A stretch of DNA of 64,000 nt from contig CM119372.1 of NCBI GenBank assembly GCA_051294905.1, forward strand, positions 17,052,001 through 17,116,000, read 5' to 3'. Position numbers and translations under genes: made by a program. The notes under the pieces are model-generated. The model was not told where the DNA came from. It made no database searches and worked only from the letters and a program-made list of their open reading frames with translations. Below are positions 1,527-61,872 of the stretch, piece by piece. Source of the DNA: Botryllus schlosseri. Taxonomy: Eukaryota. The first letter of the stretch is position 1; the number at the start of each line of letters is the position of its first letter.

Positions 1527-2438
1527 TAGGGCGATTTTTTTTACATGTCAAAAAAGTCAAAATTTTAGCGTTAGGTCAAAAAATTTCAAAATTGTTGACA
1601 AAGTCAAAATTGTTTTGCAACCTGTATTTGGTTTGTATCGTAGATTTTGCACTGTCGGTGAACTTATCATTTGACATTTTACACTTGTAGCCTACTTTAT
1701 AGGCCTACCGTTGTAGACGGCCCGTTCTCTGCTCATTTTGAATTCTCTACTAGTTGCTGATGATTACCCCTGACGAGTGTCAGCCGAAATATTCGGGTTC
1801 ATTTCAATATGAATATACTATTCATTGTGAATCATAAACATTCAAATGAAACAAATAGGTTGGCATGGTGTTATTTCCAACGTACCGCAATATCCCATCT
1901 GAAGCAAGACTGCGTGGGCATTGAATAGTTCTTATATCAAGAAGTGCATGATGAAAAATTGTGATGTAGACAGCATTGTCAGAATGAAGCAACACGGTGT
2001 GTCACAAGTAGTATACGCACAAACTTCAGAAGTTGTCACCAAGAACTGCTGCTGTTGAACTTTCTTTCTCTATTCTTGGCAAGGAACTTGGTAAGTTCAG
2101 AACTTTCTACCCGAGAATATCGGAAAGTATTTTTCATTGTACAACAGCAAATTGTAACTATTTCTACCATAATACGTATTGTAATTACTTTTATCGTAAT
2201 ACGTGATTAAACTAATGGAATTCTTCCTGGGGCTGGATTTCGTTCAAATATATTTTTTTCATGTAAAAATTTGTCAAATGAAGATAAGAAGTAAAATTCT
2301 AACATTATATAGGAGAATACCTAATTTGCATATGTTAGGTCAAAATTTGGTCAAAACTAAGTTTTTTAAAGTCAAATAATGTCAAATTTTTGATTTTTAG
2401 GTCAAAATATTCCGTTTTATAGGTGAAAAAATGCCCTA
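1527..2438. mobile_element. non-autonomous TIR element with GTCAAA-rich subtermini
   Basis: Termini TAGGGC...GCCCTA; near-perfect 8-bp TSD (TTTATAAG/CTTATAAG); internal sequence homologous to 20776-21566. Confidence 0.8.
1744..1821 (+). ncRNA. short dispersed repeat with candidate minimal type I hammerhead ribozyme (Penelope-like)
   Basis: ACCC-CUGACGA-GUGUCAGCC-GAAAUAUUC-GGGU at 1766-1798; segment absent from the homologous MITE copy near 20940; further copies near 17800, 18170, 36381. Confidence 0.5.
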
Positions 2439-2689
2439 CTTATAAGTATTGATATTTTTACATGAATCTTCTCCAAGATTCTCGAATACCTAGTTGACTG
2501 GCTTCTGGTAATCGGGACCTTCTATAATATCTGATTATAATTACAAAGCTGACCAGAAAATCGAGACAAAATTAAATACTGCATGATTCTTATAAAATGC
2601 TGCCATGATCAACTTCCTTTTTCAGGCATTTCTCCTTATCCACAGACTTGCGAACATTGTTACTAACTACCAATAGAAGACTGTTCGAT

Positions 2690-3754
2690 ATGGGATGCCT
2701 GTTTGCACGTAGCGCTTCATCTGAGACCGATGAAACGGAGAAAAAAGTTTATAGCTGGGACAAGAGGAAGGATATACGGGTAGAAGACTTTCTGATGGAG
2801 GATTTTCAAGACCGCACGCTAGTTCGATTACCCGGTTCGATCAACGGGCAGCAATTTCTAATCCAGAATTTAACTAATTGCAAAATCTATCTCCTTGACC
2901 ACACGGCTGCGATCAATATGGATAATTGCACGGATTGCCATCTGATCACAGGCCCAGTCAAAGGATCTCTGTTTTTGCGCAACTGCAAAGGCTGCAAGGT
3001 GCTGTGCGCGTGCCAACAGTTACGTACTCGGGATTGCTCAAAAACCGACATATTCCTCTTCTGCACCACCCAGCCTATCATCGAAGCCTCGTACAAAATG
3101 CAGTTTGGCTGCTACCAGCTGAGCTACTCCGGCCTTTCCACGCAATTTCAAGAATCCGGCCTAGAACTCATGAACAACAGCTGGGATAAAGTGTACGACT
3201 TCACTCCGAATCCAGATCAAGGTCCGAATTGGAAGTTAATGGCGGAAGACACAAAGGTTGAAGATGTATTCGTTTGGAGTATGGAAGGCGAAGACGAGAA
3301 CAGTGAAGACACAGGGTTAAATAAAACACATCTACCCAAAAATCTAATGCTCAATGGCAGCTGCGAAAGTAGCGTGGTACCGATGGTCGCTGGAAATCGA
3401 GGACGATTATCGGAGGAATCTTGCCTTGTAATGTTCTTCGACCAAAACGAATTGACCAACACAGTTTTGGATATAACAAGACAGATACAAAGAGAAGCCG
3501 TTATTGTGATTCGTTCGAAACAGACAACTTTACCCGAAGAGCGAGTGTCGGAAATGTTTGACAAGACGTCTCAGTCACAGTACTACGAAGCTGCGAAACG
3601 CGGAACTGTGGTGGGCGTAGAGGTGAACGGCGAAGACTGTACTGAAAAATGCCGTGAGATTATCGCGTCGTCAAACGGGGATGCCCTCGTGTTTGTAACT
3701 TCTTCGTGGCAACTGATCGAACTGTTTTACTCCGGTGTAGATATGCAGATGTGA
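2690..3754 (+). CDS. RP2: Protein XRP2 (ARL3 GTPase-activating protein), intronless CDS
   Basis: N-terminal MGC (myristoylation/palmitoylation), YSWDKR, TBCC beta-helix with CQQLRTRDC and PIIEAS motifs, C-terminal NDPK-like region; ATG at 2690, 3' splice site ending ~2625. Confidence 0.95.
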   Translation: MGCLFARSASSETDETEKKVYSWDKRKDIRVEDFLMEDFQDRTLVRLPGSINGQQFLIQNLTNCKIYLLDHTAAINMDNCTDCHLITGPVKGSLFLRNCKGCKVLCACQQLRTRDCSKTDIFLFCTTQPIIEASYKMQFGCYQLSYSGLSTQFQESGLELMNNSWDKVYDFTPNPDQGPNWKLMAEDTKVEDVFVWSMEGEDENSEDTGLNKTHLPKNLMLNGSCESSVVPMVAGNRGRLSEESCLVMFFDQNELTNTVLDITRQIQREAVIVIRSKQTTLPEERVSEMFDKTSQSQYYEAAKRGTVVGVEVNGEDCTEKCREIIASSNGDALVFVTSSWQLIELFYSGVDMQM

Positions 3755-5913
3755 TTATTGTGACTTTGTCTTTTGTTTCCTGATGCGTTGAGGTACATTA
3801 CAGGACATAGTAAACACAACAGGATACATGATTTTAACACTCAACCTCAGCATCGTTGCTATTTTTTATTTTACTGCAATGTTTCTGTAACTCGTCGAAT
3901 TCAAATCAGATAGTTATAATCTCACTGTTGCAAAGATGGTCCGGCGCTCGACGCATTGCTGAAAAAGATTCTTATCCATGAAAAGTAGACAAAATGATGG
4001 TTTCTTATTATCTAACCTTGTTCTAGTACAATTTACCAATTAATATGAACTATATTTTTTAACCTTATATCAAATCGTAACGTTTTCATAGAATAGGCTA
4101 TGTATCAGCCTACAAATAATATTTGTGCAATTGTGACCTAACAGTTGATAAAATTATGAAAATTGTTGTTCACTTCAGGATTCATTGATAGCAATCTATA
4201 TGTAGATTTGTACACTGGCAACCAGTGCATTGCAGCGAAGTGGTATGCGTAGCTGGCATTGTCGTCGGATGAATTTTGTCAAGTAGAGTGAAATTGTGTC
4301 TTATATGACCAAAGGTACGGAAGTATGCAAAAAAATATTCACATGTATTGGGCATCTAGTCTACTCGCTTTCATGCAAATGTGAAGTAGGTGGTATATTG
4401 TGCGGTTGTTGTGACAATATCACTAATTCTATTCAATTTACTAATAATACCATCAATTCTAAACGGCTCAAGATTGTTATATAATGAAAAAGTAGGAAGG
4501 TGTAGAATGTAGTAACGACTTGTAATAGTCTATCAATCGAACTCTCACCTTGGCCACTACAACGTCTAATTGAAGGGCATCTACAGTAGGTCATCAGTAA
4601 CTTTGCCCCTCTACTTCTTCGTAATATTCAAGTCGGCTGTATCCACTTCATCAAGTAGTCTTGTGTGTATACTACTTCAACAGATTTTTACCTCATCTCT
4701 CAAAATCGCCCATATTGGGAACTACTGCTAACCTATTATACACTTGCAAGTAGTCTACCTCCCTGTTGTTAATTTACTGTCTATCAAGTTAATATGCCGT
4801 TCTCGTGCTAAAACCATGCAAGGTTAGGGTCTATTTTATATATTGCCGGGTTGTAAGTAATGACTTACGTTTGAGCACATCTTGTAATGGTGCCTGTCTA
4901 GAGATTAGCCGTGCAGCTACATGCTAGGCGATAATGCTATACGGTATTGCAGTACTCATGTAGATATATCAACTTGAGTAGTTTTTAAGCTAACTACTTA
5001 CTTTTCACAATTTGATTCCAATATTCGTCAGATTATATTTTCATCTGTCCAAGACACACACAATGTACAACACGATTTACAATACATACAATGCGATGTA
5101 ATGAACAGAGTCGAGGATGCCGAACGACCATTTGTGGACTCTTAGACTGGCATCTACGTCGGCCTACTGCCCGGTGTCAGTCTTCTCCGATGGTAATCCT
5201 TCTTCGTCGCTATTTCTTGCCCATTTCTTTCTTTATCGGATCCTTTTTTATTGGGCAGCGATGTCGGGAACGAGGAGCCCAGAATAACCTCCGGCGGCGG
5301 GACTTGAACACGGGCCGCCTACGAAGATCATTCTGTGTATTTCTAGTGCCATTATTTGCGGATAGAAATATCTTCCGATTTTGAAAGAAGTTGTTGGAGA
5401 AGTTTGAAATATGTTGACCATCGACCATATCTGTCTTTTGAAGTAGCTTTTGACATGTCTTGGATGTTGATACAAACTACTTGTTATTGAGTAAAGTGAC
5501 AGCGTTGCTGCTACCTTAAGTAGCAACGTTTACTACTTTTACTCTGGAATTCTTCCAGTTAGCTTTCGTCATGTTTGTGGAAGATAAGACAACAGCCGAA
5601 TCAGTCCAGTGACACGACATCGGAAAAATTCTTCTGATGAGTTAAATTCAGTCCGTCAGTTATGTCTCTGGCGAGTCGTCGGTAATCCGGAAAGGTCATG
5701 GTCGATGGTCCCACCTGCAATGCCGTGGCGGATGAAAGAGAACTGAAGCATATCGCCTCTTTCGAGTGAGGGTGGTCAGACGAAATACGCTTCTTCATTT
5801 GTGCAGTTCTGATCAAAGTAGCTATTTGTGTATATCGTTGCTGGAACTTTATCTGCATTGACGTGTCTTTGTGGCGCGGAACAGCCGGTGCCGAATTGTC
5901 CGGCAACCGCCGG

Positions 5914-6203
5914 CATCATCATCATCATTGGTTTATTAGCAATTTTATCAGTTCAATACACCACAAAAATGCGATACAATGAAAAGACAGGAAGATGTCG
6001 AAGCGACAAGGAGTAGTCTATGGAATCTGACACCCACCTTGGCCTAGGCGATGTAAAGAGGAGGCATGCACACTGAATGAAAGTAAAGAAGATAGTATAG
6101 AAGAAGAATGCGACAAGAAATAGGGCGGCATGTCATGGGAAGCAAGATCGATAGGTCAGTCGTGGTCCGGTAATCTTGAGTATGGACTGTATTTATTTAG
6201 TAG
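5914..6203 (-). repeat. 3' end of non-LTR retroelement (AATAAA + (GAT)n tail)
   Basis: Inverted near-copy of 12512-12810; diverged fragments also near 4500, 5100, 6470, 20430/23030, 49480. Confidence 0.7.
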
Positions 6204-6274: not shown

Positions 6275-6912
6275 CGTCGACTGTCGGGTGGCCGGTCAAC
6301 AAACACAGTTAGATTCGATTATGCGCATTTTTACTTAGACCTGTTTTCATGTTTATTTATCGGGAGACGCGAGCTCAATAATTTTAAAATATACTCACAA
6401 CATATATCGCACCATGAAAAGTTTCAAGTTCAAGCTTATTCACAAAATTTTATCATTTAAAAAATCACAAGACTGCGATACAATGAAAGACAGGAAGGTG
6501 CCGAAACGACTTGAAGTAGTCTTTGAGATCAGACTCGTACCTAGGCGTAGACGATGTAATTGGAGGCATGCACAGCAGTTGCACACTGAATGAAGATAAT
6601 ATAAAATGAGAAGATAATATAAAGTGATAAGCGACAAAATGAGAAGATAATATAAAATGATAAGGGACAAAATCAGGTGGCATGTGACGGATGTTGAATA
6701 CATCTGCCCAGGGATTTCTGCATCTCCCCAACAATATTCCACCTTATCTCCTCATGTTTATAACCGTTATGCATGTTTACCGAATTATTCGATCGAAATC
6801 CATGCGCCGTTGTTGATGGATGGTTTAGAGATGGTAGATGGTTGCTAGATGGTTTACATAGCTCAGTGGTCCAAACGGACAATCAGCAGTGACCACTTGA
6901 CCACGTGGTTAT

Positions 6913-7050
6913 TGTAATATAGTTCAATGTATTTAAAACGTTTCAGTAAAAACCGCACAACCAGTCGTCTCGCCTTCGAGCCCGCTCTGTCGATCGCGTG
7001 ACAGGAGCGTCGGGAGCACACACATAATCATTACGTTAATCACAATCACA
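6913..7050 (-). repeat. 3' LTR
   Basis: Direct repeat of 11454-11591; preceded on the minus strand by the polypurine tract (7051-7059). Confidence 0.95.
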
Positions 7051-7708
7051 CTTCCTCTTGATCTAAAGATCACACGGGAAACCAGCACATAACGCAACGA
7101 TGTAACTTCAAACGTGAAAATCAGGTGAACAATTCTAAAACAGTGTATACATGAAACGGCAAACTTCCCCTTGGTCTGAAGATCGCACGGGAAGCCAAGT
7201 CAACGTGATAAATGTGGAAACAAAAACAAACTAATACGCAGTGTACACATATCGATACATCAAATTGAAAGTTAAATTTCGATATATGCCTGTGATCTAT
7301 TGACGGGGACGGGGAGTCATTTGGTCTTCCTACCCCCGTGATCTATTTGATCACTGACCCAAATTCAAAGCTTTTGAGTGTAACCCCGCAGTGTAGCCTA
7401 TATAAGACTAAGTCTGGCCAATGGGCTAATTCTGAATAAATTAACACGAGTCGTTTGCTATTAGAAGCACACAAAGTGGATCCCACAACTAAAACATACT
7501 GGCGTACAAAAAACGAAAAACTGCGGTGTAGGTGTGCCTCAAACGATGGACGAAGCGGTGATAACTGGAATTTGTAGCATACAGAATTCGTACTTGGAGG
7601 CTAAAACTTGCAAGGTATATGCAATCATCACAAGGCATAAGCATTTACGCGCGAGCAAATCAAAATGTAAAAAATCACTTACTTTTAGTACAGATATACA
7701 CTCAACAT

Positions 7709-10700
7709 CTAGCCTACATAAAAGTCAGCCAACCATTGTGGCGGCGCTCGATCCCGATTTGGTCGCGAATGGTCAGAGTTATTTCTCTCAATATCACGGT
7801 CGACATTGTCATCACCAGGTTGATCCAGATCAGCTGAGTTATTCCCATCGGTGATATTCTCTTCCGTACCGACTGGGTCATTAGCTTCACCCGAGTTACC
7901 GCTGTTTTCCGTATCAATGGCATCATCTTCTCTGCTACAATTCAAGTCGATTTCGCGCGTCGTAACACTTCCTGGTGGGTTAGGTAGATCCCCGACGGCG
8001 AGTCTAACGTCAGAAAGATGTCGATTCATCCCGTCAACCTCGACCACCACGTCGGCGACAACCCTGGTAACGACACCTCTATTCCATTGAGTAGTACATC
8101 GAGCATTTGGTGGCTTCACGAACACTACATCACCGACTCGGTATGGGTTGTAACTATTTTGTCGGTCCAATCTCTTTCTGCTTGCGCAGATCATTGAAGA
8201 TGGCAAACCAGATTCATAGCGAAACACCTTATCCGCAGGTACAATATCCTCCGAATTCGGAGTGTGATTGTACCAATACACCATTCGTTCAACACTACCT
8301 CCAGATCTCGCGGCCATTCTTTTGATAGTTCTGTGATTCCGCTCCCCAATATCATTTCCAGAATGCCGGTAGGCGCAGCTGAACACATGTTCCACCCCCC
8401 AACTGTTCAAAAACTGGCGCATTTTCCGACTAGTAAAACAAGGTCCGTTATCACTCAGAATTTCACTCGGCGCACCTCTTTCCGAGAAGACTTGTTCAAG
8501 GATCTGGATGATTTTATCGGCCGTTTCATTTCGCACCGCCTGCCATATCGCAAATCGACTAGGCCCGCAGTCGATCAAACTCAGGTATGGTCGAGTGTTT
8601 ACGTAAGTAATGTCAAGTGCCAGGCGCTCCCAGACAACGGGAACGGAAAGCTGCCCGTGTTCCCATCTCACGGGAATCGGATCAATTCTGCGACAGATGT
8701 TGCACTGATTGATTACTCGTTGAACAACATCACGAGTAACAGCTTCGCCAATGCTTCTTTTGGCTACGAAAAGCGTCCGATTCACACCTAGGTGATGTAC
8801 GTTATGAAGAGCCCGTACCTGTTCAATCACGTTCTCATTACGCCGGTTTACTCCAAGACACACCTTCTTTAGCCAGCGTTGCGGGACCCTCGTTAGTGCA
8901 TCTGCGAGATTCTCCGACGATGGTACCCAACGGATTGTGACCTCCATGCAGTATTCCTGAAAGAGCTGCGCGATAATTCCCAATCTTCTTTTAATAATCA
9001 TTTCACTTAGCCCACTGACTCTAGGTCGACGCGAATCTTCCAATATTGACTTGACCCAATGGACCACACTGACCGAGGCGGTCACAACTTCTACATTAGT
9101 GAAAACCCCATCTCAGCACCAAACTTAATCCCCTTACGACAGCGTCGAGCTCCGCGACATTTATATGCGTTCCGTCGTCCTCTTTCCTCATCCATGCTGC
9201 ATCTTCGACAACCTTCCCATCCACGGTCAAACAGCATGCCACCGCCATATTGCTCGCATCGCACCAAATTCGCGCTCTTCCATCACGATATACTCTCCAG
9301 TCCCCTCTTACTGGATCGTTCTCTCGTACCTTCGTCAAGATTTCTTCAGCCAAATGCATAACTGGATTCGGGATTACCGCATCCCACGCTATCTCGTTAG
9401 TAAGTCGTTGTTTTACATGACTGCATGCAGTTCTTAACCACCCGGCCACGGGATAATGCCCTGTGAGCTTGCCGAACACAGAAAATAGCCCTCTCTTCGT
9501 CATGCGGCCGTTCAAACTCGGCAGATCACCATCTCTCCTCCACTCCAGTACTCCATTCTGGGTCTCATTCACCCGCAATCCAACGGAACTGGATCCTTCG
9601 TCGCTAACCCATAACTTGCCAAATGCCTGCGCACTTTCTCAACCGCTACAACATTCTCATCAACCCAGATGTCGTCGATGTAATGGTCGGTTCCCCTTGC
9701 TATGTCGTCTTCCAGTGACAATACGGTAGAAATGATCTTGGTCATCACCTTTGGGCCGATGTTCAAACCGAACCCCATTCGTGTCATAACGTAAACTTTT
9801 CCTTGATGCCGCACTACTTGGAATTTTTGCAGCCTCTCGGAGACGTGAATCTGTAGGTATGCCTTCCGGAGATCCAAGATCGATGCGCGATTACTTCGTT
9901 TGCGCCAATTTCTCTATTTTTCTTGGCATACTGCCGCATCCAGTCCGGGGTGACTCATGACATGGGAATTCAGCTCGCGGTAGTCTATCACTGGCCGTAC
10001 CTTCTGCTTTTTGTTTGGTTGCTTGACCGCCAACAGCGGAATTATTCCGCCGTGGGAACCGTGACGGGCAGGATCGTACTCTACCAACCACCCGTCTCTG
10101 ATCCATTGGCTGAGTTCATCATCAAACGATGCACGACACTCCGACGGCATCTGATATCCCCCACATTGATTAGTCAACTCAGGCTCGCCATTTTCCCATC
10201 TCCACTCCATAGTCCACTTCGCTCCATCAAATTTTGCAATGAAATCTTTATCGTCAATTTGTAACCGTTTATTCGTCGCGGCCACCGCACTTGCTACACA
10301 CACCTTTGCACCAAACCACACGTCAAGATTTGAATCAACGAATACTCCGCCTAATTGCTGGATAACATCAATACCGAGAATCACGCCAGCAGCACATACG
10401 AGCTCCGAGGCTACCAAGCATTGCACCCTGACGTTGGTCTCGCCTACAACCATCATTACTATGGTCTCTCCGTAACAACTAGTGCTTTCCCCGTTCAGCA
10501 TCTCCACAATCCTTCTCGGACCCGAAACGGTATGTCCCATACGACGACACACGTCTTCAAGAACAACAGATTGCTGGCACCCAGTGTCCACCAGAGCCTT
10601 GAGAGGTTTTCCACAATTGAAACCACAACAAACGGTAGCACCTTTTTTCCAACTTGTGAATACGGGAGAACGCGTCCGGTGCTGACGGTTCTCCTTGGTA

Positions 10701-11438
10701 ATTTTCCTGCTGCGATCTTGTGACGTTCATCGGCTCTGCATTGGCGAGCTATATGACCAAGCTTACCACAGGAAAAACATCTTGGTTGTCTCCAGGCCAT
10801 TTCGTTACCGTCATATCTTGGCTCTTCAATAGGGCATTCTTTAGCAAAGTGACCACGCTTCCCGCAGAAAAAACAGTTGTCCTTCCGCTGACGCGAACCG
10901 ACCGCGCACGATACATTGAAGCTGCTCCTGACCGACATTATTACTCGATCGTGCCCGCGCGACGAGATCACTCAAATTCATTTAATTTGTCCACTTCTGC
11001 TACAGACTTTAACTGACATGAAACCTCTGGGGGGAGACCATTTACAAACGCGCACCGAATTAACGCCTCGGATGCATCCACTCTCATCCCAATCAATAGC
11101 GCAAGCCTTTTTAGGTCGGAAAGGTACACATCGACAGGTTCTTCATCCAGCAGTATTCTTCGCTGGAATTCGCTATACGCGTCATAGCAATTCACTCTAA
11201 ACGCGTTCAAAATAGCTTGTTTCGACTTCTTGTAATCCTTCCTGTCGCCTTCTGGCAACTGCTTGAACACTGCAAATGCAGGGCCATCCAACAGCAATGG
11301 GAAAATAGTTGGCAGTTTGTCCGTCAGTTCTTGCAGCTCGGAGACCAGTTCCAGTTTCTCAACCCACTTTGCAAAATCACCAGACGTTGGATAATCTTCA
11401 TAACTCCTCACAATATCAGTTAACTTCATATTCGCCAT
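7709..11438 (-). pseudogene. gag-pol with frameshifts and an in-frame stop
   Basis: Two CCHC knuckles (CFFCGKRGHFAKEC, CFSCGKLGHIARQC), protease ALVDTGC, RT (DLRKAY, YIDDI), RNase H (WCDAS, AEL, ADAL), integrase (HH..C..C; LDIT, SDNG, ERNH); broken near 10970, 10620, 9914 (TAG), 9575 and 9096. Confidence 0.92.
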
Positions 11439-11453
11439 TATGCCGCGATAGCT

Positions 11454-11591
11454 TGTAATATAGTTCAATGTATTTAAAACGTTTCAGTAAAAACCGCACA
11501 ATCAGTCGTCTCGCCTTCGAGCCCGCTCTGTCGATCGCGTGACAGGAGCGTCGGGAGCACACACATAATCATTACGTTAATCACAATCACA
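11454..11591 (-). repeat. 5' LTR
   Basis: Direct repeat of 6913-7050; followed by TSD GTTAT (11592-11596). Confidence 0.95.
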
Positions 11592-13336
11592 GTTATCAAC
11601 CTTTTTCACGTCGTGGACCGGTAAAATTTCAAAAAATGTCTGGCGGACCGGTGAACTTTCAAAAATGAAATGAAGACAAAATGTAAAGTATGCAATCGTT
11701 TTTTGGCAATTATATATGGTGCTAGAGTGTGACATTTAGAGGGTTTTGATTATCTTCATGATGGCTTCCATACGATTTTATGGTATAGTGAGTCTGCTGA
11801 GTCGAGGTAAAATTGCCTTGTCCAGATAAACGTGCTACCGCCGAGAGTCGTTTACAGCCTTTCGCGCTGAAGGTCGTGGGTTTAACCGACCACGCCAACA
11901 CGAATAATATTCTTCTCGTTGACAATATCGAGGGAAGAAGAGTTTCGGAGTAGAACCAAGCACCTTGTCTTGCTTCCTTGCTCATTGCCAACTGCCACCA
12001 GACGCAGGCTACTCTGACAACTACGCATACTATGCATACCGCAAGACAACACCTTACAGCAGCTATACCGGCCATGTGCAAATCCGGACTGAAAAATTAC
12101 TTCGTCACCTCAGCCGAAAAAACGCTGGTCTTGGGCCCGCACAGGGCGATAAGTCAAACTTCTGGCGGCTTCGCCCACAGACCCTACAATTGGGTGGATA
12201 TTGCAACTGTACTATAGTGAGCACATTCATTCAACTCAGTGTAAGCAGAGAATTTATGTAGCTTTATCGCGCCAACAGCGAAAATTTCCCTTCAATCATG
12301 ACTGAATCGGTATTCTCGTTGCCGAATTTTTGGCACAACTATCGGAGAGTCCCATGTTAGCCTGAACTTCGTTATGTGTTGGTACGGCGTGGCGCGGTAA
12401 TGGCTGAGGGAAGGCATTTAGTGACACCAGAGTGTCCTATATGGTGTCGGCACAAGCAAATCTCACGGCTCAGTGAAATTGTATCACGTCACAATTTCCA
12501 TTTGGCTACAGGCAATTACTACTAAATAAATACAGTCCATCCTCAAGATTACCGGACCACGACTGACCTATCGATCTCGCTTCCCATGACATGCCGCCCT
12601 ATTTCTTGTCGCTTTCTTTTTCTATACTGTATTCTTTACTTTCATTCAGTGTGCATGCCTCCTCTTTACTACGCCTAGGCCAAGGTGGGTGTCCGATTCC
12701 ATTGACAAATCCAAGTCGCTTCGACATCTTCCTGTCTATTCATTGTATCGCATTTTTTGTGGTGTATTGAACTGATAAAATTGCTAATAAACCAATGATG
12801 ATGATGATGAGGCAAGTTGACGGTCATTTTTGACCGGCTTGCCTAGCATTAAATTTGGTGAAACGGGTATCAATCGAAAGCTGTCTCTGTACTGATTACG
12901 AAAATATAAATTTTATTCCGCTCGCGGCCCTAGAACCCCCACAATCAGCCTCGAATTTTTCATTGTTATGGAGATTGGCATTGGGACGCAACAATGCTGT
13001 CTGGTGAAACGAGAGAGTTAATTAATAATTAATAAATTGAAAATGTTGGAAAAAGTTTCAAAAAATTACGCTATGATTTATGTTCATTTGCAAAATAATT
13101 TTGGGCCCTTTTCAAGCTCGCCCCTCTGGCCCTCTCCAATTGGGCGGTTTGGGGTGTCGCGCAAACTGTGCTCTTTAGCGATGAGTCAGCAGTTCAGCAC
13201 GTATATGTTCTGTACTTGTCGCCTTCAACATTGCATCTTGAAATTATGGTTAAAATTGTAATATACCCGGTGGACCGGCAGGAATGTCGTCGCGGACCGG
13301 CGGTTGTTTATATAGCTCAGTGGTTGAGAACCACTG
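11592..13336. mobile_element. hAT-type MITE remnant hosting the LTR element and a LINE tail
   Basis: Removing the LTR element restores CACGTGGTTATCAACCTTTTT...GGACCGG; far end GGACCGG...GGTTGAGAACCACTG. Confidence 0.55.
12512..12810 (+). repeat. 3' end of non-LTR retroelement ((GAT)n tail)
   Basis: Ends AATAAACCAATGATGATGATGATGA; upstream peptide HTARQHLTAAIPAMCK (~12030-12080) loosely resembles a CR1/L2 ORF2 C-terminus. Confidence 0.65.
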
Positions 13337-15637
13337 GTTTATAACTTTATATGGCTCAGCAGTCAGCATTGATGTCACTGAATTTAAATGCTGTTGTCGG
13401 CAATAGTCACGTGACTTTGCAAAATGCAACCTGCATTCTGTACGAGCGTCGAGCAATGATAGAAAGTGACAGGACTGGGCTGCTATCATTGGTATTGATA
13501 CGAAGTTCACGGTGGGGTGTCCAACTGTTCATTAACTCGTCTACCTTTGTACTTCTTCGATAAGAAATTCAATTATCTGTAGTCATTGTAGAACGAGCTG
13601 CGTGTTCATGGGTAAACTTCCTTACAGTCATTGCTAAGTCATTTTAACTTTGACACTTTTCTGTTTTCCACATTAAAGGAATGTTGTGATATTTTGAAGT
13701 GATCAAAGTAGATACGAAATACTCATACTATTATTCTTCTCTTTGTGTAAATAAAGAAGCCTTACTATTGATACACTCTAGCTAAGCACCAGTCTGGCAA
13801 CAGTGGTTGTTTTCGGCAGAAAGTTCGCATGACACTGTTGACAGAACGGTTTCATGCATAGAATAATAAACTAATTAAACGTAAAGTTGCGTGTGACGTT
13901 GACACCAATTTTTCTCTAGGCTAAGCATATCTGAAAAGGTTTTATTAAATATGAATTAGATAACTTAATTGTCTCTCTCATCTGCGGAACCCCTTGTGGA
14001 TGATGATTGACCATAACCCACCATTTTCAGATGGTTACTGTAACTGCCACCTTTATGGGTGAAAATGGAACCAGGTATAAGAGCTATATGGTTAATACTA
14101 AAGCTACCGACGACCTATCCAGAGATATATGTCACTATGTCAGGTGGACTATTATAAAGTAATATGATCTAGCCTATGGGCAGGGGGTGATTCGGTGTCA
14201 CAGAACCCGATAACCCTCCTTCGAATACTCCCAGCTTCTAGAAGCTTATTTCCTAGAATCTAGGTATAATATTGCTTAACATAATGGCTCATTCGTGATT
14301 AGATGCATGAGGCTGGGCAATGCACATTGCGCTAGCCTGAAGATAGCTTATTACTGAATGAATTTTATGATCAATCTAAATTTGATTTTTACTATATTTT
14401 CAGTTAATTATGCTACTAAAGCATTTTTTCTGTGAGTTATGAAGCTGCATATTATACAAGATCACTGCCAAATTGTTTTGTATCAATTTTGGTGTTAGTA
14501 CCTCAATGCTCATCTTTTTTCATTGCGCCATCTAAGCATTGTTTACCAGAGGCAATAAATTTTCTGTATACCGTAATATCCTTTCATCAAATATTTAGGT
14601 TGTATGCTCCCGTTGCCGTCATATGGTGTTGACCCTTCTAACCCAGCTATGACACTTTGAACTCGAAAGAATGTATACACTTGGAGAACATGCATAGGCC
14701 TACATGGACATGGACATTTACAAAGCACGACAAACATCAGCACCACTGAGAATAAACATCAATAAATTACTTAGTGTTTAAGCAGTAGCAATTGAGCAAA
14801 CTTCTATCCTACCGAACTCTTTCTCAAACGAATGGAATCATAATTAATGTGGGTGAAAGAATGCCGTTCCTGTAGTGTACTGCTGCTAGCTGAAAATGGG
14901 CCTACATTGATGGACAGTGCTAATCATGGGCATCTTCTCGTCGATCAAATGTCATGTAACCATTGAAGCAATCAGCAGCAGGCCACTACTGCCAAGTCAT
15001 GAGCCGACAATTATGGAATGGTATTCTGTGTGTTATCCGAGAGCCAGTGTAAACAGGATTCTAATATTCATGCACTGATTAGTGTGGCTTTGCAACGAGG
15101 AGACATGTTTGTGCCTTTCTGTATTACCAGACAAGTAGGTCAGAATTTTCTCCATGATTATAGACATCAATATAGAAAAAAATAATCTATTTTAAAGATC
15201 TCAGTGGAATCAAGCCCAGTGTAATTGCTCTGTTATATGTCTTTAGTGTTGCGATTCCATGCAAATCGCACCATTATGTACCTTTTGGTTGCTCCTTATT
15301 TGATTGTCAGTGTTGTGCAATATTTATTGTCTGAACTTTATTGGTTAGTATGCTTGCAATTGCAATAATATTGTCGGCCGAGCTGTTAGTTTGATTGCTG
15401 GACATTCTCAATCACTGCTGAGTCATTTCTGTACTTGTTCAGCCACTTGTTACAGCCATTTCATACATAAGTAACACGATATTGTGATATTCTAAAGCGG
15501 CCGAAAAATATGAAGCAAAATTTTATCAATTAGTCATTACATTTCTTCAACTTCATTTAGATAACTAGCAAAAAACTTTAGTTCGCCGTATCTGTCAAGT
15601 TAATATTTATAATTTGGATCCAAGCACTCGAGCAGTT

Positions 15638-16906
15638 ATGGTGAGACTGACTGCAAGCCCAGCGGGAGCCCTTGTGGATGAAGAAATACGATTGACCGTT
15701 ACAGGCCTGGATTATGGTCAGAAGATCACTTTAACTGCAACCACGGTGATTGACGATGGATACAAGTATGAGAGCTATGCTCATTACCGAGCTGATGATA
15801 TGGGCACAGTCGACTTATCAAGAGATGAATGTAAAGGAGGCTCTTTTAAAGGAGTATCTTCCATGGGGTTGTTTTGTTCATTGGCTCCTTCGCCATCAAA
15901 CAAGCATCCATATGGCCGTTTAATGATTCGAGATGTAGAATCGCCACTCTGTGTTAAAGTGACTGTTTTTGAAGGCTATCTATTCGCTGGAGATGATACA
16001 CATCAGCCATTTCTTACACAGTTAACACTCAAGAGATGGTACAAATCTCCCGGTGTAAAAAGAGTGGTGGTCCGTGAAGGACGTATTCGTGGTTCACTTT
16101 TCATTCCCGAAGGTTCTGGCCCCTTTCCTGCCGTTGTAGATCTATTTGGAACTGCAGGTGGGCTATTAGAATACCGAGCTTCGTTGTTGGCCTCTAGAGG
16201 ATTTCTTGCCCTGAGCCTCGCGTATTTCCGGTATGATGACCTCCCAGAGACTGTTCTTGATCTAGAATTGGAATATCTAGAAGAGGCAAAGGATTATTTG
16301 TCGGCTCATGACAAAGCGCAACTAGGAGGAATCGGAATCGTTGGCGTGTCAACAGGAGGAACACTAGCTGTCGCCGCTGCAACATATATCCCTGGCTATA
16401 AGTGTTGCGCTATGATAAATGGGTCTGTTTTCACCCATTACCCCACTCTTCATTACAAGGGAAGAATCTGGCATGCAGCCTTTCCTGATATGAAACACGC
16501 TTTTGTTGAGAGCAATGGTGTTGCATTTCTACGTACGTTAGATAAATATTTTAACATGCCACGAGATTCTAGTGCAATGTTAGAGTTTTTTAAATCGAGT
16601 TCCTCATTTCTGTTCATGTTTTCAGAAGATGACAAGTGCATGAATACGGCCGAGCACAAAAATATGATAGAACACCTGATGAAATTTTCCAATCGTAATC
16701 ATCGTATCATTATGTATAAAGGCGCAGGGCACCTGCTGGAGCCGCCGTTCAGTCCACATAGTGCGATATCATACGCTAAAATTATTGGAATGCCAGAAAA
16801 TTGGGGTGGTAACTGCCATGATCATTCGCTTGCTCAAACGAAAGCCTGGTCCGATTTGCTCATGTTTTTAAAAGATAGTTTGAAAAATACTGTGTCAAAG
16901 CTTTGA
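15638..16906 (+). CDS. acyl-CoA thioesterase (type I ACOT/BAAT family), PTS1 SKL, copy 1
   Basis: N-terminal BAAT-type domain, GPFPAVVDLFG, nucleophile motif GVSTGG, Asp in SEDDK, His in GAGH; ends SKL; intronless. Confidence 0.93.
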   Translation: MVRLTASPAGALVDEEIRLTVTGLDYGQKITLTATTVIDDGYKYESYAHYRADDMGTVDLSRDECKGGSFKGVSSMGLFCSLAPSPSNKHPYGRLMIRDVESPLCVKVTVFEGYLFAGDDTHQPFLTQLTLKRWYKSPGVKRVVVREGRIRGSLFIPEGSGPFPAVVDLFGTAGGLLEYRASLLASRGFLALSLAYFRYDDLPETVLDLELEYLEEAKDYLSAHDKAQLGGIGIVGVSTGGTLAVAAATYIPGYKCCAMINGSVFTHYPTLHYKGRIWHAAFPDMKHAFVESNGVAFLRTLDKYFNMPRDSSAMLEFFKSSSSFLFMFSEDDKCMNTAEHKNMIEHLMKFSNRNHRIIMYKGAGHLLEPPFSPHSAISYAKIIGMPENWGGNCHDHSLAQTKAWSDLLMFLKDSLKNTVSKL

Positions 16907-17795
16907 TGGTCAGGATTACTTCACCGATACTCAGTAGGCTATATGTCGCATCTTTCCTTGGTCCTGCAATGAGGTTTGTATGGCTATAACTCCAAAAATA
17001 ATCCATGAATTTTTACCGAAAAATTCATTTATAATTTTCAAAAATGTTATGCTGAAGTCCAACTAGAGTCAATTTTTATGAGCCACAATCCTATATATAT
17101 ATATGACCTATATATAATGACTGTTATATTCAAACTAAATTTGATGTTTCACATTGTCATCTCAGGGAGAGGGTGATAGTCCGTGTTAGACAGAGGCGAA
17201 GACAAATTATTGTGTATATTACTTGATGTTTCTACATCTATGCTGCAATATGAACTTCCACTCTAGTTTCTCTGCTCAATGTCCGACTGATGCGACATAT
17301 TCTGTATGAACTAGAGTGGTAACAATCAAAGAAACAAGTTTCTCAGTACAGGAATGTAGCTTAATACCGGCTTAGATTGGACATCAACATTCACATCCGG
17401 GCACACATGTTAACAGCAATCAGGAAATTGGCTTTAACAGCATTATATCTTTCCTGATCACAATTATCCATAACTGCGATAATACATGTTCAGAAGTTAA
17501 TTTCACATGCTGTGTGGTACTAAGTAACATATAACATATCTATGTGATCTAATGACAAAAGGTATCTCTCAATTGTATTTGCCATAAGTACATTTAGAAC
17601 TCGTTGCCCCTGTTGTAGTTAGTACTATGTTTGACGATAATTAATTCAAAGGGAATTAGCAAGAAGTCGACCTGGACCGATTTTATAATAATAATAACTG
17701 TTGTGCGACTTTCTAGTTTCTATTACATTCAATGCTCATAATTGTTTCAGCACGTCATTCATCTATTTCCGTGATGTGTTAATAGCTGTGACTGT

Positions 17796-18250
17796 TGAAA
17801 TTAAGCCGTATGTTTTCGGCTGACACTCGTCAGGGGTAATCGTCTGAAACTAGTAGAGCTGTGGTTCTCAAACTTTTTTAGACACGCCCCCTTTTATTAT
17901 AGTGAAATATTTCGTGCCCGCCTTATTGTCATATCACAAAATGCAACCAGAATGCTAGCAATCCCAACAGATAATTTGATGGCAGGGAAGGTTATGACTG
18001 TCGATGAGATAATTCTCAACTATGAAATTTGGACTATACACGGAACAATAACTATGAATTAAAGGTACATCGCTAGGGGCAAACTCCATAGTCTGAGAAC
18101 CACTGTAGTAGAGAATTGGAAAGAACACTGTATATCAATAATCTTATCATAAAATATGACGTCATCATGACGATTACCCCTGAAGCCCTGATGAGTGTCA
18201 GCGGAAAATATTTGGGCTCATTTCAATATGAATGTACCATTCAATTGGAA
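17796..18250. repeat. back-to-back pair of hammerhead-core repeats split by a MITE
   Basis: Minus copy ~17796-17858 (degenerate after GAAA); plus copy CCCTGATGAGTGTCAGCGGAAAATATTTGGG ~18185-18216. Confidence 0.55.
17859..18105. mobile_element. hAT-type MITE
   Basis: TIRs like 911-1133; 8-bp TSD TAGTAGAG. Confidence 0.85.
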
Positions 18251-19127
18251 TACTTTGGTGAATAACATTTCTCTGTAATTGTGCAGTGCATACTTAACTC
18301 TTATCATTTAGCTTGCTTTACTTGATCTATTTTTTACGTAAGCAAAATGGGATTGCACATAAATGCTGATTTCATTACTACTATTTTCGACTACTTCTAC
18401 GTAACAGTTTCAGTATTTCACTTGGAAATTGTGACTTCTATTTATACTCGAGTAGAAATTGACGAGATTACTTCTACTTCCGTACCAACGAAGAATACTT
18501 GTACGGTGCACCACCTTTGCCTGTAAGATGTAAGATCAATATTCCCAGTGTAGCATTCGTAGATTATATTCTCTGCTACCCTGCTATCATGCTGTGACGG
18601 CGCGAAAATTAGCCGATTTTTTTTACGCCAAATTGTCGTTAACCATATTTCTGTTGAAATATGATATCGACTTGATATTATCGGCAAACCGGTAATCACT
18701 CGGACTTTCAGTCAGAATTTCTTCAGTTGCAAGCATGCAATCCCATTTGTTCATGAAATCAGCAAGTTTAGTCAATGTACATATTTAGATATTTCATACG
18801 GGTTATTGCCTAATAAACGCAATTCTATTGCCTAAAAATCTGTGTGTAATCAAATACAGGATCACGACTAATTTGATTTAAATGATTTCTAATCCATTAT
18901 TGCAAATGCTATGACAGCTACTAGTATACAAAGGCTAAGGATATCTCCTTGGACATTGATAACATAGTAAGCATCATCTCGTTTGGTAGGCCTACAAATA
19001 TTTGCCATTCCTTAATAGAAATTGACTGTCGTACAATGGAATGCCTGCTCATTTTCAGATTTCATAATATATTTTTACGTCTGTTAAATCTTACAAGAAA
19101 TATTTGAATGGGAAAAAATCTATGACA

Positions 19128-20343
19128 ATGGTTAAACTTATTGCTATACCATCTGAAGCCCTCATGGACGACGAAATACGGCTGGTTGTTACAAACTTGA
19201 AGTCACACCAGAACATTACTGTAGTTGTAAATGTTACAGGTGCACGCGGAGATAACCATCACAGTCACGCTCATTATGAGGCTGACAATTTCGGAACGGT
19301 TGACATTAGTCGAGATGAAAGCAAAGGTGGCTCGTACACGGGAATATTTTCTATGGGCCTATTCTGCACAATGACACCGTCTCCATTAAACAAGCATCAT
19401 AATTGTGTTCGACCAACATGTAACATACAATGAAAGTATTCATAAGGAAAGTCTGTCGAAAATTGTTGTTGAAAGGAGGTATAAATCTACCGGTGTGAAA
19501 CGCGAGATAGTGCGTGATGGGCGTCTACGGGGATCTCTGTTCATTCCAGAAGGTGCTGGACCATTTCCTGCGGTCGTTGACATATTTGGGGCAGGTGGAC
19601 TGACGGAGTTCAGGGCAGCTTTGCTGGCATCGAGAGGTTTTCTGACATTAGCTCTTGCATTTTTCGGGTATGAGGACCTGCCTAAGACACCACAAGATAT
19701 AGATCTTGAGTATTTTGAAGAGGCAAAGAATTACTTGATTGCTCACAAGGCTTCGCGAATAGGAGGAATTGGTATCGTTGGTATATCATTGGGTGGTACA
19801 ATTGCCCTTGCAGTCGCCTCTTACATTCCGGATTATAACTGCTGTGTAACGATTAATGGCCCGGTTTTTGCCTTCAACTTTAACTTGCGCTACAAAGGCC
19901 GAATGTGGATTGGGGCAGTACCTGATATGAAAAAACTGTACATTGAAAACAATGGGGCCAATGCTATCAATATGCTTGATGATTATTTAACTATGCCGTT
20001 AGACAGTAATTCAATTATGGAATTTAATAAATCACAGAGTTCTATTATGTTTATCTTCTCCGGGGACGATAAAACGCTAAAAGCATATGACCATCAGAAA
20101 ATGGCTGAAAATATACTCAGCGGTTCTAGTGTCGACTATCGTATCATTGCGTATAGTGGGGCTGGCCACCTTCTAGATCCTCCATTTAGTGCACACAGTC
20201 CTATGTCATATAATATGGCCATTAGGATGACTCAACATTGGGGAGGTAACGCTGCACAACATTCTCTTGCTCAGAGTCAAGCTTGGTCGGCTATACTGCA
20301 GTATCTCAGAGAAAAACTCCAAATGTATAAATCTAAACTTTGA
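19128..20343 (+). pseudogene. ACOT/BAAT-family copy 2, frameshifted by a ~50-bp deletion near 19400
   Basis: Two ORFs in different frames; 18 codons present in copy 3 (FTRFMIRDVVSPIQVHLT) are replaced by 4 nt; GISLGG, SGDDK, GAGH and SKL intact. Confidence 0.85.
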
Positions 20344-20560
20344 ATGAATTGGGCAGCCTGTCACATTTGAATCAAGGATTTTTCTAGTCATGCTTTTACT
20401 GATTTTTAATATAATTCATGACATACTAGTCAGCCCTCAAGTTTACCAGACCACGACCTGACATATCGATCCTTCCGTCACATGCCATCTCATTTTCTCA
20501 CTTGTCTTTTACTTTTCGTTTAGTGTGCATGCCTTCTGTTTACATAACCTAGGCCTAGGG

Positions 20561-21717
20561 CAGTGGTTCCCAACCTGTGGTACGCGTACCACTAGTGGTA
20601 CGCGAAGGTCTTCCAGGTGGTACGCGAGTAGATTCTGTTTATTTTTTCGACCAAAGGAAGGTATTAGTTCAGGTGGGTTTGATTTTGAATTTTTTTGACT
20701 AGTGGTGAATAAACAATTCCATGCATCTCATCAACCCGGGCTGATAATGCCTAGTTTAATGAAATTTGGTATTAGTAGGGCTATTTTTTTACAAAATTGA
20801 GCGTTAAGTCAAAAAATTGTCAAAATTGTTTACAAAGTCAAAAGATTTTTGACCCCTCCATTTCGTTTGTATCGTAGATTTGATACTTTAAAGCTTTAAG
20901 CCTACTTTATAGGCCTACCGTTGTAGGCGGCCCATTGTCTGCTCATCGTGGATCATAAATTGTCAAACGAAACGAATAGGTTGTCAATTGACATATGGTG
21001 TTATTCTCAACGTACCGTAATATCCTAACTGAAGCAAGACTGCTTGGGCATTGCATGGATATTTTATCAAGAAGCGCATGATGAATAGGCCTAATTGTGA
21101 TGTATGACGTGTATGACAACATTGTCAGAATGAAGCACCATGGTGGGTCACCAGCAGTGTACGCACAGTTTCAGTGTTGTCAACCAACAACTACTGCTGT
21201 TAAACGGTAGGCTATTTTTCCATTCTTGGCAAGCTACTTAGTAAGGACAGACAATTTTCACCCGAGAATGTAAGAAAGTATGTTTCGTCGTTGTACTACA
21301 ACAAATTTTAATTAACTCCTCCATAATACGTGGTGTAACTACTGGGTCAGATATCGTTAAAATAAAGTTTTTTCATGTCAAAATTTGTCAGTTTTTAAGT
21401 CAAAAAGGCTTTTTCAGGCCATACTACTTCGTAAGGACAGACAGTCCTTACCAAAATTGAATATAAGTAGTACAATTTTAACATTATGTGCGAAAACACC
21501 TAATTTGCGTACGTGAAGTCAAAATTCGGTCAAAATTCTCCAAATTTTTAGGTAAAAATCGCCCTACACCCCACATAGGCCAATTACGGGATTATGACGT
21601 CATAAATGGTGAAAACATTTTTACCGCGTACGTCGTGCGTAAATTATGTAGGTGGTACGCGAGCACTGCATAAAACCTCGAAGTGGTACGCGGAAGGAAA
21701 AAGGTTGGGAACCACTG
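20561..21717. mobile_element. hAT-type MITE with nested element
   Basis: TIR CAGTGGTTCCCAACCT; GGTACGCG subterminal motifs; TSD GCCTAGGG; interrupts a LINE-tail repeat. Confidence 0.9.
20776..21566. mobile_element. TAGGGC-ended element, same family as 1527-2438
   Basis: Colinear homology with 1527-2438; no clear TSD. Confidence 0.75.
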
Positions 21718-21747
21718 GCCTAGGGGGACGGTGGGGCGTCTGATTTC

Positions 21748-23020
21748 CAGAGGTGGTCAGTAACGAAGTACTTCTACTTTTTGGAAGTACTCAAGTAGTT
21801 TTGCTCTACTTCTGGTACTTACTCAAGTAGAGTTGATTTTTGCTACTTCTACTTCATAATATTTTGTGATCTACTTACTTACTTTGCGCCATTTTCAGTT
21901 TGATAAGTAGAAGTAGTGTAATCCCCCATACGAAAGATAACCTGAGGAATTTCGGGGCAGTTTTCACGGAGTACCAACATTTAATATTCATAAAAGTCAA
22001 GTAAACCCCAGAAATTTTGTTGCTCTTCACGCACAGTAGTTATGGAGTGACGTATATGTTTTCACGAAAGTATCAGTCAACATAATTTAGGTACTGGATT
22101 GCTTATGGTTCTGCTCACAACGCATTGTCGCCCATATCAAATATTTCATCACAGTAAATATGGCCCACCATAACGTTTGAAACTACCGTTTTGCAATCTA
22201 GCAATTACCTATCCTATCGTTATCTAACAGCCCATGACGTGTCCTGCTGATCTGGAAAATCCGGCTTTTTGGAACGTTACACCTGTTTTAGTAGATCACC
22301 TTTGAAGCTTTATGGACAAAAGACATGAAATATATTTCCCGCTTTTTAGTAGTGCTATTTGTATTTCACTTTCAATTCTGAGTATGTTACTCGCGGTATC
22401 ATACTTTGAGTCCTAATTACTTTCAATCCTTTTGTCTGCAGAACACACATGTTGAAGCATAAAAGCAAGTGTAGTAATAATGCCTCTAATTTCCGAAAAG
22501 AAAGCTACACTAAATATAGAGTTTAAGATCCACAATATTTATTATTAACGTATACTAGTCGTTCAAAGTGTTCAAACCGTATCCGATACAACTTCTCCGT
22601 ATTGCTCTTTGCCTAAACTTGGGGCCCTATAATATGGGGTAGGGTGCCATGTCATGATATTCTCTAAAATGGGGTCTTTTAGTAAACAAAGGGTTGGTAT
22701 CGCATTTGCGTATCAATACTATAATTTGCATCCCACGACGCGAAAAAAAAATTGTCGAAAATTGATGCCTCCTGGGATGGATCAATACGAATCAAGCTCT
22801 CTGCACCTTCCGCATAGCTCAATTTGCAGCTTTTGACAGTCCATGCAGACGAATTAAAAACTACTTACTTACTTGAGTAGATTTAAAGTCAGTCAATTCT
22901 GCTTCTACTTCACGTAGTTTTTGGTTGCTCATGGAATAAGTACTTCTACTCGGACTTGAGTAGATTTTTCCATCGCTACTTCTACTTGAGTAGCATTCTT
23001 GAATACTTTGACCACCTCTG
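21748..23020. mobile_element. hAT-type MITE with AGTAG/CTACT subterminal repeats
   Basis: TIR CAGAGGTGGTCA; TSD CTGATTTC. Confidence 0.9.
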
Positions 23021-23398
23021 CTGATTTCAAAGACTGCTCCAAGTCGTTTCGACACCTTCCCATCTTTTCATTGTATCACTGACTTCTGGTGTTTTTAAAT
23101 GATCAAATTCCTTAAACTGATACTGGAACCAAAGGACGTAGTCAAAGATTTTACTTTTGTAATGACCACTTCGATTGACAGAAGATAGACTTGCCGAAGG
23201 CTTGACAGCCTACTCAAATGTAATGAATTCACTCATTGTCACAATAATATGATATAAATTTAGCATGGATATGGCCAATACTGACTTGAACATTTCTTGT
23301 AAGTTCATGTTGATTCTTTTTTCGATGTCATGCTTTCGACATGGATTTTTTTTCTTGTAGCCTACCGTATCTGTAATTGGAATTGAAACCACAAAGTC

Positions 23399-24667
23399 AT
23401 GGTGAGGCTAACTGCAAATCCAATGGATGCCCTCATGGATGAAGAAATCTGTTTGGTTGTGAACGACTTGGATCCTCACCAGAACATCACTGTAGTCGCA
23501 AGAGTTACTGATCAAAATGGTGATATCTATGAAAGCAATGCATATTATACAGCTGATGATTTTGGAACTGTTGACATTTTTCGAGATGAAAGCAAAGGAG
23601 GCTCCTATACTGGAGTATCTTCCATGGGTCTATTTTGCTTCATGATACCATCGCCAGCGAATAAGCACCAGTTTACCCGCTTCATGATACGCGATGTAGT
23701 ATCACCTATTCAAGTTCACTTGACTGTGCATCATGGACATCAATTACTTGAAGATATTGAGGGTGAAAAGTTTCTATCGTATATTGTAGTTAAGCGGCGG
23801 TATAAAGCAATTGGCGTGAAAAGAGCGACTGTTCGCAGTGGTCATCTTCGTGGATCGTTGTTCATTCCCGAGGGCATCGGCCCATTTCCTGCAATTGTTG
23901 ATTTGTTTGGCAGTGCCGGCGGACTCATCGAGTTCAGGGCTGCATTACTAGCTTCACGAGGTTTCCTGACACTTTCTCTTGCCTATTTCTCATATGACGA
24001 CCTTCCAGAACAAGTTAATGAAATAGATTTGGAGTATTTTGAAGAGGCAAAGAATTTTTTAGTCGCTCATGAGTCTTCACAAAAAGGAGGAATTGGTATT
24101 ATTGGTGTATCAGCAGGGGGTACCATTGCCCTTGCTGCTGCAACATATATCAATGATTACAAATGCTGCATTTCTATTAATGGACCAGTTTTCGCCTACT
24201 ACACAATGTTAAAATATAAAGGCAAAATCTGGGAACCAAAGGTACTTGACATGACAAGAGTTTATATTGAAAGCAATGGACTCGTTTTGAAAAGATGCAT
24301 AGATGAAAAATTCCAAATGTCCTCTGATTGCAGCTCAATTATTGAATACAACAAATCGAAGAGTTCATTTTTGTTCATGTTTTCAGAAAATGACAAAGCG
24401 ATTAATACAGCAAAGCATCAAGTCATGGCTGAGCGCTTGTTGCGGGGTTCTGGAGTTGACTACCGTGTCATTGTTTATACTGGTGCGGGTCATTTGTTAG
24501 AGCCTCCATTCTCCCCTCATACTTCTGTGTCATATGCCAAGATTTTGGGGATGGCTCAGAATTGGGGAGGTACTGCTAAATACCATTCGCTTGGACAGAG
24601 TAAAGGATGGTCCGATTTATTACTTTATTTGAGAGAGAAATTGCGGACAAATTTAGCGAAACTTTGA
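23399..24667 (+). CDS. ACOT/BAAT-family copy 3, PTS1 AKL
   Basis: GVSAGG, SENDK, GAGH; ends AKL; intronless; clearly paralogous to copies 1 and 2. Confidence 0.93.
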   Translation: MVRLTANPMDALMDEEICLVVNDLDPHQNITVVARVTDQNGDIYESNAYYTADDFGTVDIFRDESKGGSYTGVSSMGLFCFMIPSPANKHQFTRFMIRDVVSPIQVHLTVHHGHQLLEDIEGEKFLSYIVVKRRYKAIGVKRATVRSGHLRGSLFIPEGIGPFPAIVDLFGSAGGLIEFRAALLASRGFLTLSLAYFSYDDLPEQVNEIDLEYFEEAKNFLVAHESSQKGGIGIIGVSAGGTIALAAATYINDYKCCISINGPVFAYYTMLKYKGKIWEPKVLDMTRVYIESNGLVLKRCIDEKFQMSSDCSSIIEYNKSKSSFLFMFSENDKAINTAKHQVMAERLLRGSGVDYRVIVYTGAGHLLEPPFSPHTSVSYAKILGMAQNWGGTAKYHSLGQSKGWSDLLLYLREKLRTNLAKL

Positions 24668-36233: not shown

Positions 36234-36380
36234 TGTCCAATCACAACATTCAACACGTGCTCCAACAAATACTGTGACAGATAAACCACAGCCTATTTTA
36301 CCATAAGCAGACTTGATAAATACTGTCAAGGAATATTTGAAGAGCTTCTTGGTGCGTACAGAACTTCAATATACAATTGC

Positions 36381-36458
36381 ATAGTATATTCATATTGAAA
36401 TGAGCCTGAATATTTTCGGCTGACACTCGTCAGGGGTAATCATCAGCAACTAGTAGAG
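36381..36458 (-). ncRNA. hammerhead-core repeat copy
   Basis: Reverse complement: ACCC-CUGACGA-GUGUCAGCC-GAA-AAUAUU-C-AGG; near-identical to 1744-1821. Confidence 0.5.
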
Positions 36459-61806: not shown

Positions 61807-61872
61807 AATTAAGTAATTGAACAGAAAGTCCTGCATGACGTTGCCAACTTGCCACCAATTTCACTCTGGTAT

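Follow-up and report, generated by a model that had tools for sequence, protein, structure and literature searches.

The window, by which we mean the whole stretch of 64,000 nucleotides analysed here, is animal-like DNA in which host genes lie among many repeats. The host genes include those for a TBCC-domain protein (2609-3754) and FIBP (47919-49007), each in one long frame, and for malonyl-CoA decarboxylase (41908-43356), which is spread over several frames, by short introns or frameshifts. Three tandem acyl-CoA thioesterase/BAAT paralogues occupy 15569-24667, each as one or two long frames, and a pair of 1.3-kb inverted repeats (21748-23020 and 25632-26918, 76% identical) brackets the third, which may represent a transposon capture. 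An uninterrupted ORF of 1,083 amino acids with no Pfam match is located at 43421-46672 on the minus strand. Among the repeats, an LTR retrotransposon (6912-11594, minus strand) has 142-bp LTRs of 98.6% identity, is broken, with its gag, protease, reverse transcriptase (RT) and integrase in several frames, and is flanked by 320-bp inverted repeats (5883-6203 and 12519-12839). Arrays of a 176-bp unit are found at 49765-51543, 56541-59547 and 61872-64000, in both orientations and each preceded by a common 420-bp leader; a descriptor search of these arrays for a hammerhead with a paired stem I found none.

A short dispersed repeat is present four times in the window. All four copies lie where the first-pass annotation had placed them, and a search with the core pattern, allowing up to three mismatches, returned these four matches and none in 100 shuffles. 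Copy 1 (1744-1821, plus strand) is a 5'-truncated insertion that ends at the shorter of two 3' ends. Copies 2 and 3 form a head-to-head inverted pair, in which copy 2 (17795-17858, minus strand) is the decayed left arm and copy 3 (18168-18247, plus strand) is the inverted arm, which is 5'-truncated, bears a small duplication inside it and has the short 3' end. Copy 4 (36336-36457, minus strand) has the long 3' end and is an insertion of 122 bp, because its limits are set by a perfect 11-bp target-site duplication (TSD; 36325-36335 and 36458-36468, plus strand) that the first-pass annotation had missed. Copies 1 and 4 are 94% identical over 86 bp, copies 1 and 2 are 87.5% identical over 64 bp, copies 1 and 3 85% over 66 bp and copies 2 and 3 80% over 41 bp. 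Copy 1 had also been described as an insertion and, in fact, we found 78 bp together with an 11-bp duplication. The left TSD (1733-1743, plus strand) is present once in the sister of the host element, at ∼20943, where the insertion is absent, and the right TSD (1822-1832, plus strand) has one mismatch and first bases that resemble the family's own 3' end. Such a duplication is expected by chance in 0.24% of random spans. A TSD was likewise sought for the pair formed by copies 2 and 3, and none was found. The host element of copy 1 (1520-2445) has 20-bp terminal inverted repeats and a sister at ∼20775-21567, which is itself nested in an element (20554-21724) with 23-bp inverted ends that resemble the ends of a MITE inside copy 2.

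None of the four copies is intact, each carrying at least one damaging change: the palindrome is one base short in copy 1, copy 2 has A at U16.1, in copy 3 C11.1 is replaced by G and stem I is broken, and copy 4 has A at G1.1. The window copies are probably dead. The palindromic AAUAUU that had been claimed for two copies was seen in copies 3 and 4, and the consensus proposed at that stage agrees with the majority sequence of the reads. The unit of ∼80 bp did not hold, as these 80 bp are merely the overlap common to shortened copies and the reads extend it on both sides. All four copies are degenerate fragments, cut short, of a highly abundant repeat that is probably the end of a Penelope-like element (PLE).

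Read mapping on copy 4 covered four of the 24 listed runs (X4, X7 and two RNA runs). In X4 and X7, 36,226 and 1,753 contigs, respectively, fitted copy 4, and 2,571 and 8,227 reads did so in the two RNA runs. Extrapolated, the four copies in the 64 kb of the window would correspond to ∼6,000 per 100 Mb; the contig counts do not amount to a copy count, nor is the read depth ratio of ∼1.5e5 a copy number. The family reaches at least 30 bp farther to the 5' side and ∼40 bp farther to the 3' side than the ∼80 bp, and the largest groups of 5' loose ends run on, in all four runs, into one common sequence (upstream groups of 484 contigs in X4 and 569 reads in X23, with an agreement of 0.67-0.75). This upstream continuation is found in the window at 18114-18143 (minus strand), where 28 of 30 positions match the consensus that the loose ends give in all four runs, and it may run on to ∼18167. 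It is the upstream part of copy 2, separated from it by a MITE (17859-18105) that we take to be hAT-like and that is bordered by an 8-bp TSD (17851-17858 and 18106-18113). The target site of this MITE in copy 2 (17851-17858) coincides with the 5' start point of copies 1 and 4, possibly by chance. The right flank of copy 4 had zero coverage in any of the four runs. A strand bias of 4:1, whose meaning depends on the library chemistry, was seen in the single-cell RNA run, and the bulk run was even. Outside these runs, six metagenome loci share only the repeat's 20-mer, in unrelated flanks, and no match was found in prokaryote genomes or in viral contigs.

The elements of a type I hammerhead (C3 U4 G5 A6 N7 G8 A9, G12 A13 A14, A15.1, U16.1 and H17, in C-G-S order) are present in the read majority and in copies 1, 3 and 4. 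On the plus strand of copy 1 they follow one another as the 5' strand of stem I (1766-1769), the core box CUGANGA (1770-1776), G10.1 with a 7-nt loop II and C11.1 forming a stem II of one base pair (1777-1785), the GAAA box with the stem III region, which lacks one base in copy 1, and UC (1786-1794), and the 3' strand of stem I (1795-1798), with cleavage predicted after 1794. Stem I has four Watson-Crick pairs in copy 1 and in the read majority. The read majority combines intact core letters with this 4-bp stem I, the G10.1-C11.1 pair and the AAUAUU palindrome, and the palindromic 15.2-16.2 region is shared with copies 3 and 4. When judged by the junction pairs 1.1-2.1, 10.1-11.1 and 15.1-16.1, as set out in the text of PMC3088659, all three are intact in the read majority and in copy 1 and are broken in copies 2, 3 and 4. 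The majority letters of stem I account for 68-94% at 1.1 and for 89-97% at 1.4; ∼30% of the X4 depth has A at 1.1, where it disrupts the pair that closes stem I. A descriptor with a stem I of at least 4 bp and the 10.1-11.1 pair matched 0.0067 times per shuffled window, and none of 300 shuffles contained a match once the palindrome was added; the core boxes alone gave 2.75 matches per shuffled window.

The Rfam hammerhead models had no match in the window or on stretches of 111 and 146 bases, and the Rfam snoRNA and miRNA matches in the window were discarded for lying far below the gathering score. The core had been expected to be more conserved than its flanks, and its positions vary about as often as theirs (median variation of 1.4% in the core vs 1.1% in the flanks for X4, and 0.8% vs 2.3% for X7, over 40 of 78 rows). 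This is what dead copies are expected to show, and it gives no support to the ribozyme. No pile-up of RNA ends was seen in the two RNA runs at the cleavage site or elsewhere, as has also been described for PAc (PMC11167929). Inspection by eye of the window copies for a second GAAA block downstream, which would allow the permuted C-S-G order, found none, and the AAUAUU duplex adds only -0.2 kcal/mol. The majority sequence supports a Penelope-type hammerhead core in this repeat, with the letters of an RNA that would cut itself.

The first-pass annotation had warned that stem II was weak and that a competing hairpin existed, and it was right on both points, as stem II consists of a single G-C pair. 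What it had not noticed is that the 7-nt loop II is complementary to a seven-base stretch upstream of stem I, with 3 nt in between, so that this upstream strand (1756-1762, plus strand) can pair with all 7 nt of the loop in a predicted pseudoknot. The pairs are six Watson-Crick and one G-U in the majority sequence, and five Watson-Crick and two G-U in both copy 1 and copy 4, and the majority letters of the knot strand account for 85-97%. Among random 15-nt stretches, 0.3-0.6% contain a partner able to form seven pairs with loop II. We found no compensatory change in stems or knot among the four copies (75% of cells paired), and a single young family cannot show covariation. The pairing-neutral variants at 36441 and 36442 were set aside as support for the knot, being products of CpG decay. 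The upstream strand is close to being a repeat of the core box and might have arisen by a small duplication. The competing hairpin, CUGAC/GUCAG, has a calculated energy of -5.4 kcal/mol vs -5.3 for the knot helix; it occurs in the predicted fold of copy 1, and copy 4 has a 4-bp version of it. Stem II is not a hairpin but one G-C pair closing a 7-nt loop, which is likely to be engaged in a pseudoknot. There is a precedent, since a hammerhead with a 1-bp stem II and a 6-bp pseudoknot has been described as active, at >1.2 per minute, and pseudoknotted hammerheads have been reported in all three types (PMC3088659).

The ends of the copies recall those of PLEs, for which the published descriptions give an optional tail of 30-40 bp, an adjacent inverted truncated copy, TSDs of 8-10 bp and palindromes at junctions (PMC8557442, PMC3846280), the 8-10-bp length being that of Adineta PLEs. 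In our case, the TSDs of copies 1 and 4 are 11 bp long and there are two likely 3' ends ∼39 bp apart, near 36374 and 36336 (24 of 592 loose-end rows). Copies 1 and 3 stop near the shorter of these two ends, copy 4 reaches the longer one, and copy 2 breaks off earlier. The difference is an optional 3' extension, or tail, of ∼39 bp (36336-36373, minus strand) that is absent from copies 1-3. The tail of PLEs has been attributed to two internal start sites of reverse transcription (PMC11167929). An inverted copy that is itself 5'-truncated, as lies at the 5' end of PLEs, is represented by copies 2 and 3 and by strand-changing joints that meet head-to-head at the 5' side (8 of the 15 joints listed, from a total of 35), and a 10-bp palindrome (18156-18165), with a probability of ∼6% by chance per 30 bp, lies near the junction of copies 2 and 3. 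Read depth drops smoothly toward the 5' side, as truncation predicts. The tail hairpin is no more stable than shuffles (z -0.6), and among six folds only the hairpin downstream of copy 3 reached z -2.5.

An adjacent ORF with a Penelope RT or a GIY-YIG domain had also been sought, and none was found among the 128 ORFs scanned out of the 176 of at least 70 residues in the window, the other 48 lying in host genes, the LTR element and the 176-bp arrays. The sole RT match among the scanned ORFs belongs to the LTR element, and two weak matches near 53400-54870 resemble another non-LTR remnant. As there is no linked ORF in the window, membership in the Penelope-like class rests on anatomy and not on an enzyme gene. 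A PLE pLTR can contain the start of an ORF (PMC8557442, PMC3846280, PMC11167929), and here an ATG (1809-1811, plus strand) lies 14 nt past the predicted cleavage site, a weak candidate for the ORF start of a master element. By our reading, its frame stays open in the read majority for 19 codons, until the tail finishes; its two commonest variants are synonymous, as are 6 of the 10 transitions listed (p 0.06, hand count). A second open frame is likewise present in copy 4, and we take the ATG frame only as a hint of a coding start. The earlier idea of a tiny non-autonomous family derived from Penelope holds in one half: the TSDs, the two likely 3' ends, the inverted truncated copies and the majority sequence argue for the Penelope-like origin; the ∼80 bp are the stretch that the truncated copies have in common.

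The reading that we favour, and consider probable in full, is a Penelope-like terminal repeat (pLTR and tail) with a dimer-type hammerhead whose stem II is knotted. A Penelope-type RT/endonuclease would nick the DNA and begin reverse transcription of the RNA at either of two internal points, which lie ∼33 and 72 nt beyond the ribozyme site. As reverse transcription would usually stop early, short pieces centred on the ribozyme remain. Loop II of the master RNA would form pairs with the strand immediately upstream of stem I and, by stacking on G10.1-C11.1, produce a helix II of 8 bp that a 3-nt linker connects to stem I, a geometry that we infer from general knowledge of pseudoknots. Two such motifs would then pair through AAUAUU and be cut after UC.

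It could be argued instead, in line with the first-pass idea but for a unit longer than 80 bp, that the repeat is a dedicated short non-autonomous element: a monomer akin to retrozymes or SINEs, whose 5' end is defined and which a Penelope enzyme moves in trans. The 5' starts of copies 1 and 4 do fall within ∼2 bp of each other, one X4 loose-end row (115 contigs) fades just past that point, the repeat is very abundant with no ORF seen, and monomer retrozymes related to pLTRs have been described in a preprint (bioRxiv 2026.07.22.740005). However, the larger loose-end groups run into the common upstream sequence, the smooth fall in depth and the different start of copy 3 do not suggest a fixed 5' end, the window is without a tandem array, and the ATG frame with its synonymous transitions (6 of 10, p 0.06) follows the ribozyme; we regard such an element as unlikely. 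Less likely still is a Penelope-like repeat in which the hammerhead degenerated in the master lineage, with stem II lost, the inhibitory hairpin winning, the knot a by-product of duplication and no cleavage. The absence of a hairpin stem II, the stability of the competing hairpin, which equals that of the knot, and the lack of compensatory changes could be explained in this way, and insertion of PAc in vitro did not need ribozyme cleavage (PMC11167929). Against this, the majority sequence retains every core letter along with all three junction pairs and the palindrome, the knot has seven pairs vs five for the hairpin, and the one-pair stem II with a pseudoknot is active in the published case (PMC3088659).

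The repeat might also be the end of an unrelated element (a Helitron, a MITE or another LINE or SINE) with a hammerhead-like core arisen by chance. Helitrons produce no TSD and end at CTRR, and a hairpin followed by CTAG, such as the one found 16 nt before CTAG on the opposite strand, resembles their 3' end; the lack of an Rfam match and the frequency of the core boxes alone in shuffled windows also fit a chance core. Nevertheless, the 11-bp TSDs at two copies and the continuation of the family past CTAG led us to reject the Helitron identity. The window copies have ragged ends without terminal inverted repeats or poly-A, and the full descriptor was absent from all 300 shuffles, which makes an unrelated end of any kind very improbable. 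A Penelope-type origin in some form, whether as the knotted terminal repeat that we favour, as a short element moved in trans or as a repeat with a degenerate hammerhead, is very likely.

When the terminal repeat with its predicted knot is compared with the minimal hammerheads of PLE repeats described by Cervera and De la Pena (2014, PMC4209133), they share the core boxes, the G10.1-C11.1 pair, a short stem I and a self-complementary 15.1-16.1 region of the Drosophila Penelope type, and the PLE copies of that report are likewise mostly solitary and truncated, with opposite-strand pairs 100-700 bp apart. In contrast, a hairpin stem II of at least 3 bp is seen by eye in every one of the 56 examples of its figure S3, where we predict one pair and a pseudoknot, and most published examples carry an extra base after A9 that is absent here. 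Because the hairpin stem II is missing, the repeat falls outside the published minimal-hammerhead form. The canonical EN+ PLEs, as far as described in PMC3846280, PMC8557442 and PMC11167929, are alike in TSD length, in the 30-40-bp tail, in the head-to-head truncated copy and in a possible ORF start just past the ribozyme, whereas here no ORF is linked and the observed copies measure just 64-122 bp. The pseudoknotted hammerhead of Perreault et al. (2011, PMC3088659) also has a one-pair stem II and a knot, of 6-7 bp across the two cases, that ties stems I and II together; that example, according to the text, is a metagenomic type II motif with a normal stem III, active when tested, unlike the predicted type I motif with a dimer-type stem III that we describe in an animal retroelement repeat. 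The non-LTR retrozymes (Cervera and De la Pena 2020; bioRxiv 2026.07.22.740005) are described as non-coding and related to pLTRs, with a type I hammerhead and some monomers, and they are defined by tandem units, whereas the copies here are dispersed and ragged, with TSDs. No array of tandem hammerhead units was found in the window, and the reads contain only a few partial-tandem joints.

As hammerheads in Penelope terminal repeats are already known, the basic finding is an ordinary one. What we predict to be new is the knotted one-pair stem II in a Penelope-like repeat, of which the literature searched (titles, beginnings of abstracts and selected passages) gave no case. If the knotted stem II folds and cuts, standard searches would undercount ribozymes in animal genomes, some Penelope families called 'hammerhead-less' would be misdescribed, and the repeat would be a natural on/off RNA design of small size (a 55-nt transcript). 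Tentatively, and with less than even confidence, we propose that the competing hairpin is an off state that wins once 5' truncation removes the knot strand and that, together with the permuted hammerheads of nematode Naiads considered below, the 'hammerhead-less' PLE clades may carry rearranged ones.

The Naiad elements described by Craig et al. (2021, PMC8557442), which the paper reports to be without a canonical hammerhead, have an 'HHR_core' with both core boxes and a spacer of 7-17 nt that fits no stem descriptor, as is the case here. In some of their consensus sequences a helix can be seen by eye between a strand upstream of stem I and a strand after the first core box. Two Darwinula 'HHR_core' ends differ in that no stem I partner stands immediately after GAAA, and those of nematodes are permuted; this likeness is judged by description. 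Only two C-S-G hammerhead sequences are given as known in PMC10085705, and no link between Naiads and C-S-G hammerheads was found in the literature searched. [quoted passage not shown] In the Acropora, Pomphorhynchus and Beroe Naiad 3' regions of the same source, the cleavage, GAAA and CUGAUGA blocks appear by eye in S-G-C order, with the partner strand of stem II coming from upstream.
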